This document shows positions 1,732 through 49,500 of a stretch of 64,000 nucleotides of DNA, piece by piece. Position 1 is the first letter of the stretch. Each line of letters starts with the position of its first letter. Where the stretch lies: positions 11,284,001 to 11,348,000 of the forward strand of contig OZ024766.1 of the NCBI GenBank assembly GCA_964016885.1, written 5' to 3'. The stretch is from Eledone cirrhosa (Eukaryota). A model generated the notes under the pieces. It saw nothing but the letters and a program-made list of their open reading frames with translations. It made no database searches and was not told the DNA's origin. The translations under genes and the position numbers were made by a program.

Positions 1732-2050
1732 ATAGGAAAAAGTATGACCCCGACGGCAGAGCTCAAGCCGTTTCAACAGCTATTTCTAGACTAAATTAGA
1801 ATTTTTAGCCTGGTAAATAAATAGCCGAACTTGTCAACGGGTACTTCCATATAAGGAAGTACCCCTTGACAAGTTCAGCTATTTATTTACCAGGCTAAAA
1901 ATTCTAATTTAGTCCAGAAATAGCCGTCGAAACGGCTTGAGCTCTGCCGTCGGGGTCATACTTTTTCCTATTACCCACTCTACTACCATAAGTATTGAGT
2001 ACTCTGGTGCGTTATGGTCCATCTGGTTCCTTACCACAATTCCTTCGTTA
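1732..2050. mobile_element. Palindromic Penelope-like element, family H1
   Basis: Inverted arms 1732-1848/1855-1971 plus a one-sided tail; a second copy at 12997-13239 has a different turn-around point. Confidence 0.7.
1861..1956 (+). ncRNA. Type-I hammerhead ribozyme motif with variant UUGACAA core (U3:A8)
   Basis: ACCCC-TTGACAA-[stem II gctattt..aaatagc]-GAAACGGC-loop-GCCGTC-GGGGT. Confidence 0.65.
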
Positions 2051-2242
2051 TATATATATACATTTTTTAAGTGGGGAAAGGCCTTGCACTCTACCAATCG
2101 CACTCCCTGAGCATCGAAAGCACTACCTGAAAAGGAGAACTGGTCAACATCATCGGATGCTTCCGAAGATGCAGTTTTTTTTTCTAAGTTTCCCTCTCCT
2201 AGAAAGATGTTGTGACAACAACTGGGGGCCTTTCACTCCCAT

Positions 2243-43500: not shown

Positions 43501-46500
43501 CCTGTAGAGTGTATCCTGAATTGGCAAAGCTCCCTGGTAGCACTGCCAGGCCAGGGATTTCTGGAAATTGTCCATGGGCCCCGGCTCGAAAGTTCTCCCG
43601 AAGAGTTTGGCTAGTTGGCTTTCTTTATTAACCACAAGGGTTGACATAAGGTATAACATTAAGGACAGCACAGGACGGTACATATGAACATTTCTGCGTG
43701 TAGATACAAAATTATATATATATAAAAAGCAAAAACAAAGGATGTAACAAAAAAATGAAAACAAAGGAAAAATTCCTCAATAGTGGGGAGAATTCCAAGG
43801 GTCACTCGTGGAAAAAGCCCACAAAAGGTCATGGTCACCCTGACCGCTAGGCCAAGCACCCTCTCCCAGTTTTCCTCCTACGATACTACAGGCACATGAT
43901 AATAATAATAATGATTTCTACTATAGGCACAAGGCCAGCAATTACCCCAGTGTATTACTGGTACTTTATTTTATCAACCCTGTAATAATTGTTTCTACTT
44001 TAGGCACAAGGCCAGCAATTACCTCAGTGTATTACTGGTACTTTATTTTATCAACCCTGCAATAATTGTTTCTACTTTAGGCACAAGGCCAGCAATTACC
44101 CCAGTGTATTACTGGTACTTTATTTATCGAACCCGTAAGGATGAAGGACAAAGTTAACCACGGCGGGATTTGAACTCAGACTATAAAGGGCCGTAACTCT
44201 GTGCCACAAAGCATGCTGACAGACCCTCTACCGATACTGCCAATAATAATAATAATAATTAATGCTAATGCTTTTGATGATTATAATGCTTACACTAAAA
44301 CACTAAATAATAATGATTTCTACTATAGGCACAAGGCCAGCAATTACCCCAGTGTATTACTGGTACTTTATTTTATCAACCCTGTAATAATTGTCTCTAC
44401 GTTTGGCACAAGGCCAGCAATTACCCCAGTGTATTACTGGTACTTTATTTTATCAACCCTGTAATAATTATTTCTACTTTTGGCACAAGGCCAGCAATTA
44501 CCCCAGTGTATTACTGGTACTTTATTTTATCGACCCCCGTATTAGACTGGTATTGTATATATGGAGAGATAGAGAGAGAGGAAGTGAGAAAGAGATATAG
44601 AGCAAGAATTAGCCCCAGTGCTTGACTGGTACATTTTTTTATTGACCTTGAGTGGTTGAAAGTCAAAGTTGACCTCGGTGGGATTTGAACTCAGAAACCA
44701 GAGAACTGAAATGAATACTAGAAAGCATTTTATCCGACCTTCAGTATGAGCAGCTGGTTACAGCCAGTTTGAACAGAAAGAGGTGAGAGAATTCTGGCCA
44801 GAGACGGCCGGTTTAAATGCTAAACGTTTAACCCTTTAGCATTTAAATTACTCTATATATACTATTGTATTGTCACAGTAAAGGCTTTACCTCACATAAT
44901 ATCTCACATAACATTTATATTACTCTATATATATACTATTGTATTTTCACAGTAAAGGCTTTACCTCACATAATATCTCACATAACATTTATATTACTCT
45001 ATATATATACTATTGTATTTTCACAGTAAAGGCTTTACCTCACATAATATCTCACATAACATTTACATTACTCTATATATACTATTGTATTGTCACAGTA
45101 AAGGCTTTACCTCACATAATATCTCACATAACATTTATATTACTCTATATATATACTATTGTATTTTCACAGTAAAGGCTTTACCTCACATAATATCTCA
45201 CATAACATTAACATTACTCTATATATACTATTGTATTTTCACAGTAAAGGCTTTACCTCACATAATATCTCACATAACATTAACATTACTCTATATATAC
45301 TATTGTATTTTCACAGTAAAGGCTTTACCTCACATAATATCTCACATAACATTTACATTACTCTATATATACTATTGTATTGTCACAGTAAAGGCTTTAC
45401 CTCACATAATATCTCACATAACATTTACATTACTCTATATATACTATTGTATTTTCACAGTAAAGGCTTTACCTCACATAATCTCACATAACATTTACAT
45501 TACTCTATATATACTATTGTATTTTCACAGTAAAGGCTTTACCTCACATAATATCTCACATAACATTTACATTACTCTATATATACTATTGTATTTTCAC
45601 AGTAAAGGCTTTACCTCACATAATATCTCACATAACTTTTACATTACTCTATATATACTATTGTATTTTCATGGTAAAGGCTTTACCTCACATAATATCT
45701 CACATAACATTTACATTACTCTATATATACTATTGTATTTTCATGGTAAAGGCTTTACATTACATAATTGTCTCACATTATATCAAAGCTACGAGATTTT
45801 GATATTATTTATTTTGAGAACAATACCTTAACATAAGTATGAGCAGCCGATTACAGCTGGTTTAAACAAAGAAGTGAGAGAATTTTTGCTGGATATGGCC
45901 GGTTGAAATACTAAAGGGTTGAGAGGAACCTGAAGTTGTGTGAAGGCGAGAAGACTTGCATTGGTTCGGACATGTGATGTGCATGGACAATGATCCTTGG
46001 GTGAAGAAGTGTCAGGAAATCCAGTGGAAGGAAACTGCAGTCGCGGGTGACCAAGACAGACCTGAGCAGAGGAAATGATGAAGGAATGCGATGTGTGGAG
46101 AGATGTTGTGCTGAGAAGGACCCATCCAACCTATGCAAGAATGGAAAAACAGACGTAAAAATTATGATATATATATATATATATATATATTATATATATA
46201 TATATTTATATATATATTTATATTTATATATATGTTTATATTTATATGTATGTATAAATAGATTTATGTATGCATATGTATATATGTGTGTATTTATTGT
46301 ATATACACATGTATATATATATGTATATATATATGTATATATATATTATATATATATGTATATATATATATTTATATATATGTTTATATATATATGTATG
46401 TATAAATATATTTATGTATGCATATGTATATATGTGTGTATTTATTGTATATATACATGTATATATACATTGTGTTTGTTTGTGTGTATGTATGTATATA

Positions 46501-49500
46501 TGTATATATATATATATATATATATATATATATATATATATATATATATATATAAACACATGTATATATTATATTTCTATAATTTTATTGTTTAGGACCA
46601 TGAACAAAAATGAACTGGACATTTCATACATAACATCCAGAATGATTGGTGAGTTGGCCCTTATTTCTGTAACCCCTTTCCCCCCAGCTCCACTGATCCT
46701 GCCCTCCTGGTTCTAAGACTTAGCATTCTCTCCCATACAAAACCCACAGTAGCAACACAATCGGGGTTAGAAACACTAGCTTCATAACAACCATGCAGTC
46801 AAATAGACACATAAATGGACAGGTATATAGAGATAGATAGATAGATAGATAGATGGATAGTTTGATAAATAACTTGTTTCTGCCTAATTGTGCTTCATCA
46901 GCGGTTCTTTTTTCAGACAGACAAACTAATAAATATATAAATTGACAGATATATACAGATAGATTGATAAATAACTTGTTTCTGCCTCATTGTGCTTCAT
47001 CAGCGGTTTTTTTTTCAGGCAGACAAACTAATAGATACATAAATTGACAGATATATAGAGATAGATATATTTCCTTATTTGCCACAGGGGCGCACAAAAA
47101 CGGGACATTACAAGACGTGACGGGCTGGGGTTTTACATAAAATCTTTAACGATGATAAATAACAATAAACTATATAAAAATAAAACAATTGAAATCCCCA
47201 TTAGGGGGTAGCGCTACTGCGGGGTTGTTTTACATGCTGTGGATAGAGATAGATAGATAGATGGATAGATTGATAACTTGTTTCTGCCTCATTGTGCTTC
47301 ATTAGCGTGTTTTTTTCTTTTTTGTTCTTTTTTACTCACCCTCTTTCTCTCTATCTCTTCCCCCGCCCCATGCAGTGATGTCATTCCCAGCTGAAGGTGT
47401 GGAATCAGCATTCAAGAACCACATCGATGATGTACGCTGTCTCTTAGACTCTAAACACCGTGGACAGTACAGTGTATACAACCTCAGTCAAAAAAATTAC
47501 CGGGCCATAAAGTTTGAAAACAGAGTGAGTCAGCCATTTTCTCTTCTTTCGTTCAACATCTGTTGTTGTTGTTGTTGTTGCTGTTTCTGTCTGTCTGGCG
47601 TTTTTTCTTTCCCCTCTTCTATCTTCTCTGTGTGTGCATTTGCGTGTATATATGGAGGCACATGGCTTAGTGGTTAGAGCATTGGCCTTGCAATCGAAAG
47701 GTTGTGGGTTCAATTCTCAGACCGGGTGATGTGTTGTTTCCTTGAGCAAGACACTTTATTTCACATTGCTCCAGTTTACTCAGCTGTAGAAATGAGATGA
47801 TAGGGACTGGAGTCCCTCTCATTCCACTGCAAAGTGGTCGTGGAGGTGTCATGGAAGAAAAGCACCCAGCCCACACTGTAAAGTGGACGTGTAGCTGCCA
47901 CGGCAAAAAAGCACCCAGCACTCACTGTAAATGAGGTTGGTGTTAGGAGGGGCATCCAGCTGTAGAAATCAAGCCAGAATCAGTTCCCGTCCCACCCTTG
48001 CAAGCAGGGAAATGTGGACGTAAAATGATGATGATGATGATGATTATATATATATATATTTTTTGAGTATGTGTTTGGTTGTTTACCGACACCTCAGTAT
48101 GCAGGTTGGAGCGCTCGATGAAGTACGCAGGTTGGTTTGTTTACTCCGGAGTAATGTAAAATAATTAAGTCAAACATGTTAAATTTGGTTTCATTTATTA
48201 TAAATTCTCTGCTATATATATATATATGACCTCATCAAGCAGTACGAATACTGCCTGATGAGGTCACAGCCAATAATAGCTGTCACTGAAATATATATAG
48301 CAGAGAATTTATAATAAACGAAGCCAAATTTAACATATTTGACTTACTTATTTTATGTATGTATGTATGTATATAGCCTGGTGGTCACCGATCTGTCCAG
48401 TTTGTTTGTCTACTAGCATATCAGGGGAAAATTAAACATTTTTTATATATTTTGTCTGAGGAGAACATGTTTTGCTTTATGTTATACATAAAACTTTGCA
48501 TCTTCGAAATATTTATAATGAAATAAATAGAGATGATGTAAAATGTATATCTTTCGTTTATTACTAATATTATATATATATATACACCTACATAGATATT
48601 TATATCTATTTCTCTTAGGTATTACAACTCGGCTGGTCCCATAAACGTATCCCCACTCTGGCCAGTATCTTCACCTTATGTAAAAACCTCTACCATTGGC
48701 TGCGAAAACACCCCAAAAATATCTGCGTGGTCCATTGTCTTGTAAGTAATGGCATTTTAATTGTATTATAATGGTTTTTTTAAATTGCATTTTAATATTT
48801 TAGTTGTATTTTAATGAGTTTTAATTGTATTTATTTAGTTTTAATTGTATTTATTTAGTTTTAATTGTATTTATTTAGTTTTAATTGTATTTATTTAGTT
48901 TTAATTGTATTTATTTAGTTTTAATTGTATTTTATTTAGTTTTAATTGTATTTTAATGGGGGGTTTCTTTCTGTTAATTTATCACTGGGAAATATGTTTA
49001 AACATGTTTAGGTAGTTAAAATCTCTCATCTTGATTATGTAATTCTTGTCTTCCATACCTTTGTCTTTAACCCTCTCCCTCTCACTCACTCTCTAACCCT
49101 CACTCACTCTCTCTCAAGCCCTCACTCACCCTCTCTGTAACCCTCACTCACCCTCTCTGTAACCCTCACTCACCCTCTCTGTAACCCTCACTCACCCTCT
49201 CTGTAACCCTCACGCACCCTCTCTGTAACCCTCACTCACCCTCTCTGTAACCCTCACTCACCCTCTCTGTAACCCTCTCTCTGTAACCCTCACTCACCCT
49301 CTCTGTAACCCTCTCTTATCCCCTTCAGGATGGTAAGACCATGTCAGCCACCGCTGTCTGTTGTTTCCTCGTCTTCTGCGGCGTCTGTAAAACAATTGAC
49401 GAAGCCGTCTACCTGTTCGCTTCTAAACGAGTCAATCCCAACACGTCAGCATCGCAGCGCAGGTAAGTACACACCAAGTAGCATCATCATCATCATATCA

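Follow-up and report, generated by a model that had tools for sequence, protein, structure and literature searches.

The Hydra clade of the Penelope-like elements (PLEs), as set out in the available part of its description, is marked by CxCX5C, DKT, CxxC and CxH motifs, by hammerhead ribozymes and by insertion into (TA)n. The same source gives partial tandems, inverted 5'-truncated copies and a tail of 30–40 bp as features of PLEs, treats their transposition cycle as undefined, sees the setting up of an in vitro system as the work ahead, and lists Hydra-1_Obim from Octopus bimaculoides in its supplement (Craig et al. 2021; PMC8557442). Other work, again as far as its accessible text goes, describes minimal hammerheads in PLE repeats, with low, dimer-dependent activity and with a U3-A8 core among them, and ascribes opposite-strand hammerhead pairs 100–700 bp apart to truncated PLEs (PMC4209133); retrozymes, according to the available portion of a further report, derive from PLE repeats (bioRxiv 10.64898/2026.07.22.740005). 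It is with these systems that we compare six palindromic elements, H1 to H6, found in a stretch of 64,000 nucleotides of the Eledone cirrhosa genome (assembly GCA_964016885.1, contig OZ024766.1, positions 11,284,001 to 11,348,000 of the forward strand; hereafter the window), most of them within introns of a GAK gene.

Judged from sequence, the PLE origin of all six elements appears all but certain. They do not constitute a new class, being instead additional members of the known Hydra-clade PLEs; what the accessible parts of PMC8557442 and PMC4209133 already describe covers their inverted copies and tails, their (TA)n targets, their pairs of hammerheads on opposite strands and their U3-A8 core. 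The reading that we favour, and consider probable, is that the six are 5'-truncated inverted-repeat insertions of Hydra-clade PLEs, each likely formed from two complementary DNAs (cDNAs) that were primed on opposite strands and then joined. Four would stem from families that bear open reading frames (ORFs), H2 from a close relative of one such family and H4 from a non-coding derivative.

A sequence-only reading of the window had placed palindromes at six positions, and all six are found there, with arms 83–99% complementary (94.9, 91.7, 95.7, 82.6, 99.4 and 92.6% for H1 to H6, respectively). H1 (1733..2049, forward strand) is an inverted insertion of a Hydra-clade PLE 3' end, made up of a tail-less arm, a tailed arm and a 79-nt tail. 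H2 (28279..28740, reverse strand) is a palindromic stub with a tail of ~92 nt on its left, the arms of which carry the alleles of different subfamilies. H3 (32144..32562, forward) has a 163-nt tail and is the end of a 4180-bp Hydra-clade unit, H4 (33418..33927, forward) has a tail of ~142 nt and is the end of a non-coding tandem unit of ~2.08 kb, and H5 (39730..40157, forward), a near-perfect palindrome with a tail of ~83 nt, shares 86–92% identity with the terminal part of a Hydra-clade unit of 3.67 kb. For H6 (48062..48355, reverse) the palindrome had been placed correctly at 48158–48355, but its ~95-nt tail (48062–48153) lies beyond those limits and its left, tailed arm has a hammerhead without stem II. 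The families had also been described as unrelated in sequence, a description that needs amending for H2 and H5, which are not wholly unrelated because stem I and the core flanks are common to both (20-nt match, E 4e-4).

The clade assignment rests on longer copies of these elements elsewhere in the genome. The 3.0-Gb assembly was searched with 40 best candidates scored per DNA search; the first-look candidates, which are not copy numbers, came to 2476 for H1, 1098 for H2, 2399 for H3, 3563 for H4 and 1200 for H6. Copies of H1 run upstream into a GIY-YIG endonuclease, the ORF ending ~0.9 kb upstream in L046, L112 and L113; a near-complete ORF is present in L309, and both L309 and L310 hold a reverse transcriptase (RT) with a C-terminal GIY-YIG domain. 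In the H3 locus L111 the 4180-bp unit has RT and endonuclease, in three frames, between two copies of H3. H5 was tied to ORFs by way of an endonuclease protein search, in which 26 of 30 loci have H5-like sequence (80–92% identity) on the downstream side of the endonuclease; the ORFs in L196 and L198 encode 760 and 715 amino acids, and L198 is a full tandem. A parent family of H2 (79–90% identical) has an upstream endonuclease in 12 of 30 loci, and for H6 the figure is 9 of 30; both counts follow a same-sense distance rule and may include chance neighbours, although colinear copies confirm both links; in H6 the endonuclease lies ~1.4–1.7 kb away in longer copies, and for H6 and the H2 parent alike the endonuclease and the C-terminal part of the RT are seen. 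The linkage to PLE RT and GIY-YIG ORFs that had been proposed as a check is thus present for H1, H3, H5, H6 and the H2 parent, all of which have longer copies with Hydra-clade PLE ORFs, and absent for H4. Partial tandems (pLTR) occur for H3 (L111, L109), H5 (L198) and H4 (L241, L265, L246). Separately, a Pfam GIY-YIG search with 10,595 candidates was set aside, the 30 loci retrieved being other PLE types and the matches to window elements being neighbours or a nested short repeat.

No endonuclease link was found for H4 in 30 loci, and its ~2.08-kb unit contains no frame longer than 124 codons, no match to a Hydra protein with an E value below 0.05 and no Rfam match; on its sequence, it is filed as a non-autonomous derivative. 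The unit (L241, L265, L246; also L312–L314) contains two diverged internal repeats of ~250 nt, 75% alike, together with both of the bulged hairpins described below, and looks like a large non-autonomous Hydra derivative. The notion that the window records a radiation of non-autonomous elements is therefore mostly wrong, since H1, H3, H5 and H6 are 5'-truncated ends of RT–endonuclease families, and only H4 and possibly H2 look non-autonomous.

Read in translation, the ORFs show DKT, a CxCX5C linker, CxxC before the catalytic E and CxH after the N, with DKT seen for H3 and H5 only and the CxH of H3 not seen in frame in L111; by eye they resemble the Hydra alignment in the supplement of PMC8557442, as far as this is available. 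The likeness to the Hydra-clade PLEs with a C-terminal endonuclease, on what the accessible text of that source says of them, extends to a single ORF of RT plus C-terminal GIY-YIG, with the CxxC and CxH motifs around the catalytic E and N, and to the hammerhead near the 3' end, the (TA)n target, the partial tandems, the inverted 5'-truncated copy and the one-sided tail. Indeed, the inverted layout that had been noticed is the published form of PLE insertion, and targeting of (TA)n is borne out by a TA-type repeat after the tail end in 51/53, 29/29, 21/24, 39/42, 21/22 and 13/14 copies of H1 to H6. The units here are larger (3.7–4.2 kb, against generally less than 3 kb in the clade) and the tails longer (79–163 nt, against 30–40 bp) than in the available description, which, moreover, does not mention the bulged hairpin of these elements. 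The clade is also very abundant in this genome, a single endonuclease query giving 58,185 first-look candidates, a figure that is not a copy number.

Comparison with animal non-LTR retrozymes (LTR, long terminal repeat), as far as the available text of their descriptions allows, shows a type I hammerhead, absence of protein and a proposed derivation from PLEs as common points (PMC7229834; bioRxiv 10.64898/2026.07.22.740005), H4 being the nearest of the six. Retrozymes, however, are tandem arrays of short monomers with consensus lengths of 51–972 bp in the second of these sources, whereas the H4 unit is ~2.1 kb, and is seen only as non-coding partial tandems of that size, with neither an array nor a circular RNA observed; the other five elements differ further from retrozymes in being the ends of ORF-bearing families or close to them.

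The type I hammerhead anatomy reported for the six elements, with its core, GAAA, NUH and three stems, is present in all of them together with the stem I pairs that had been named. A strict descriptor, relaxed once from an initial tighter version that matched only four motifs, finds eight type I motifs in the window, of which seven lie in the six named elements and one at 30706; 200 dinucleotide shuffles gave no motif in 198 cases and one in two (mean 0.01). Three descriptors combined give 10 credible motifs, in agreement with the earlier estimate of about ten. In H1 the motif (1861..1956, forward) has the U3-A8 core variant and a 5-bp stem III, with a predicted cut after 1951. Both arms of H2 carry one, that of the tailed arm (28413..28477, reverse) having a partly decayed stem II and that of the tail-less arm (28636..28700, forward) a predicted cut after 28692. 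H3 has a motif at 32310..32356 (forward). The tail-less and tailed arms of H4 (33467..33524, reverse; 33674..33730, forward, with one change in stem III) and of H5 (39766..39836, reverse; 39961..40031, forward) each have one, and in H6 the motif lies in the tail-less arm (48251..48303, forward), with a predicted cut after 48299.

As regards the cores, UUGACAA is right for H1, TTGACAA being present in 33 of 40 segments of the family, but CUGANGA does not describe H3, whose family core is CCGAAGA (32 of 38 segments, and the left arm of the window copy); the CTGAAGA of the other window arm is a minority allele that most likely reflects CpG decay in that arm. The CCGAAGA core, with C at position 4, is observed in a young and abundant family of 96–99% identity (for example L111:1810–1816 and window 32314–32320). 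The minimal palindromic form of stem III does not hold for H1, where stem III is a 5-bp hairpin. The motifs resemble the hammerheads of PMC4209133, in the part of that paper available, in that stem I is short, stem III is palindromic and a genome contains many heterogeneous families, and also in the opposite-strand pairs 100–700 bp apart and the U3-A8 core variant. They differ from them in that the stem III of H1 could fold as a monomer, in the majority CCGAAGA core of H3 and in a stem II of up to 57 nt. In the H2 superfamily, across 51 related rows in a register chosen to maximise pairing, stem II pair 2 is A-U in 39, G-C in 4 and G-U in 3 and pair 5 is C-G in 34 and U-A in 13, with G-G in 17 rows at pair 4; the changes among H2 subfamilies would in this light be compensatory, with one position poorly paired. 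As a side observation, the 1.09 Mb of retrieved loci contains 252 hammerhead matches that fall into 26 clusters, many of them unrelated to H1–H6 and several with a U3-A8 core.

Each family has two fixed outer ends, namely the tail end and an internal site upstream of it, separated by 79 nt in H1, 163 nt in H3, 142–145 nt in H4 and approximately 92, 83 and 95 nt in H2, H5 and H6. The inner ends of the two arms, by contrast with these fixed outer ends, vary independently of one another, and, on a count made by eye, the tail-less arm exceeds the other by over 10 nt in 3 of 10 H3 and 5 of 15 H1 two-armed loci. In other words, either arm may be the longer, and together with the independent inner ends this favours two separate primings of cDNA, which we regard as rather likely. 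All 10 of the classifiable two-armed H5 loci have one tailed and one tail-less arm. After removal of six duplicate H2 loci, each arm has its nearest likeness in its partner, and not in another copy, in 21 of 24 H2, 12 of 15 H1, 8 of 10 H3 and 4 of 7 H4 loci; the two cDNAs would usually, though in some cases not, have come from the same source locus. The window copy of H2 (28279–28740) is an exception, its arms differing at eight discordant segregating sites that include a subfamily trinucleotide. Arm discordance was also observed in two other H2 loci, L009 (five sites) and L017 (four sites), in part at CpG.

Just beyond the internal end lies a further common feature, a hairpin in which a 4-bp RCTC/GAGY stem has a 3' bulge of 2 nt and is topped by an upper stem that varies; it starts 4–9 nt past the internal-end anchor in all six families. 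Among copies that continue beyond this end it is present within 20 nt in 26/32, 33/49, 9/11, 20/38, 9/12 and 13/32 (H1 to H6), where the chance of finding it in a 20-nt window is ~0.005. The 4-bp stem is found as ACTC/GAGT and as GCTC/GAGC, and the upper stems remain paired despite differences among families. In the window the hairpin lies at 1977..2000 in H1 (forward; ACTC, a 4-bp stem, a TT bulge and GAGT), 28344..28363 in H2 (reverse), 32403..32436 in H3 (forward; the GCTC/GAGC variant), 33788..33847 in H4 (forward), 40074..40098 in H5 (forward) and, decayed in this copy, 48113–48152 in H6 (reverse). A second hairpin follows 6 nt past the tail end in the tandems of H3 (L111, L109) and of H4, where the descriptor recognises it in L246 and it can be seen by eye in L269. 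By eye, the same fold can also be made out on the downstream side of the hammerhead in a single published consensus, that of the record preceding Hydra-1_Obim in the available part of the PMC8557442 supplement. A literature search that did not extend to subscription papers, and in which most matches were judged from their listings, found no paper dealing with the bulged hairpin or with priming from two sides in PLEs.

These features can be assembled into a possible sequence of events. The hammerhead would cut tandem transcripts of full-length elements, acting as a dimer where stem III is short and palindromic, and the GIY-YIG endonuclease would cut the (TA)n target. The RT would then bind the bulged hairpin and begin synthesis a few bases to its 5' side; with one such start at each of two hairpins, two cDNAs would be primed on the opposite strands of the cut site, and both would stop early before being joined head to head. 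That the two hairpin copies are the start signals of the RT, and that the two cDNAs, sometimes from two RNAs, are primed on both (TA)n strands, is a proposal we make tentatively, at somewhat less than even chances; two RNA molecules could in that case be held together by the self-complementary stem III of the hammerhead. If true, one model would account for the inverted repeat, for the presence of a tail on one side only and for the dimeric role of the hammerhead.

The same Hydra-PLE origin is compatible with another route, in which one cDNA folds back and is copied to give the inverted arm, the endonuclease cuts the intermediate at the internal site and later deletions leave the arms unequal. 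The tail has been attributed to endonuclease-mediated resolution (Craig et al., PMC8557442, available part), and private changes recur as mirror images in the two arms (10 in H2, seven in H1, three in H3 and two in H4), with short fold-back pieces at the junctions in L037 and L100, all of which this route would accommodate. We nonetheless think it unlikely, and infer two cDNA syntheses because a fold-back copy can neither exceed its template nor supply the tail: in L310 and L309 the tail-less arm measures 2.5–2.9 kb against 0.3–1.1 kb for the tailed arm, it is the tail-less arm that bears the endonuclease in 20 of 26 H5 loci, and the alleles in the two arms of the window H2 belong to different subfamilies. 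Deletion at a later stage, or gene conversion, is a competing explanation. The sequence-only reading had envisaged a radiation of non-autonomous elements, which would here be short ones multiplying as palindromic units of fixed form, and the non-coding unit ended by H4 and the near-fixed centre of H2 (24 of 24 distinct loci) are in keeping with it; even so, the centres of H1 and H3 vary over hundreds of bases, the junction of H2 differs in most copies, the fixed centre is itself a biased result because the H2 query spanned it and so selected such copies, and longer copies run into ORFs, which refutes the idea for H1, H3, H5 and H6 and leaves it improbable as a whole. No copy of H2 proper was found beyond the loci of that centre-spanning query, on which its apparent fixed 5' start depends. 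In most of 25 loci (L116–L140) the 5' ends of H4 cluster at a distance of 346–363 nt from the tail end, where the long unit has a natural stem-loop, which suggests a site of RT stalling. Most remote of all is the idea of miniature inverted-repeat transposable elements (MITEs) or other DNA transposons with terminal inverted repeats (TIRs) and chance hammerhead-like words: such elements would likewise have inverted repeats, a TA target and outer ends that are fixed, but the one-sided tail makes the termini unequal, many copies are one-armed, the hammerhead motifs number far above chance, and the RT and GIY-YIG ORFs of longer copies rule out a TIR transposon identity.

Several results weigh against two-sided priming from Hydra-clade sources with functional ribozymes. 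The copies came from best-match searches, and the samples are biased because only 40 candidates were scored per DNA search; later deletions in long palindromes could equally make either arm the longer; and tandem 5' junctions were sought for H1, H2 and H6 in 12 longer stretches and none was found. The second hairpin is known from four distinct tandem junctions in two families, and failed the descriptor in the H5 tandem L198 and in L241 and L265 of H4. Only 9 of the 26 hammerhead clusters have the hairpin; among the 14 multi-copy clusters, counted whether or not their copies extend beyond 100 nt, 5 are without it, as are most singletons; many of the hairpin-less clusters are short or single copies, but C6, C8 and C9 are without it despite long copies. 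With respect to the ribozymes, no hammerhead model appears among the Rfam matches listed for the window (150 of 541) or at gathering score in the six element loci, core positions in H2–H6 are only slightly more conserved than positions elsewhere (0.974–0.989 against 0.924–0.973), and the ribozyme of the H3 family may be weak because its majority core has C at position 4. The microRNA and snoRNA matches that Rfam does list for the window lie on palindromes and microsatellites and were dismissed as artefacts.

The host gene (16600..63214, forward strand, limits approximate) has kinase, PTEN-like and C2-like exons. In a search of the PDB with two exons, one matches human GAK (E 1.8e-17) and the other auxilin (E 9.7e-14), and further exons were recognised by eye; a Pfam search of 94 of the 111 candidate frames in the window returned no GAK domain. 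As had been proposed, most of the elements are intronic, H2 to H6 lying between GAK exons, and H1 is upstream of the first located exon, near 16636. Stubs of a known retroelement clade, one of unusual abundance in this genome, are in other words scattered through the introns. Whole elements are predicted to fold with 76–88% of their bases paired, and because of this the stubs in GAK pre-mRNA are modelled as long hairpins that would sequester the ribozyme motif; they are therefore probably inert passengers. All of this is relevant to repeat annotation and urges caution against calling such palindromes MITEs or microRNA precursors. For an in vitro PLE system, the fixed ends, the independent truncations, the chimeric copy and the hairpin amount to concrete predictions.

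Other repeats of related kind lie close by. A second palindromic stub of the H1 family, shorter and tailed, is found at 12997..13237 (reverse) and had been missed before, and two more H2-related stubs of 81–89% identity occupy 30265..30800 (reverse), one with an intact hammerhead motif (30653–30714) and a hairpin (30580–30600). A tail-only H3-like fragment lies between TA repeats at 40612–40790 (reverse), with a hairpin at 40735–40768. A seventh family, in which the descriptor finds no hammerhead, has two copies, 28015–28270 (forward) and 6885–7135 (reverse), with the same bulged hairpin at 28170–28195 and 6966–6991. Additional local palindromes occur at 12273–12547, 22178–22413 and 29657–29768. 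Within the GAK introns there are minisatellite arrays at 23577–26196 (~112 bp), 49495–51451 (~65 bp) and 57484–59057 (~72 bp), and after the C2-like exons a low-complexity open frame of 591 codons (61442–63214, forward) is probably a large linker exon of GAK.

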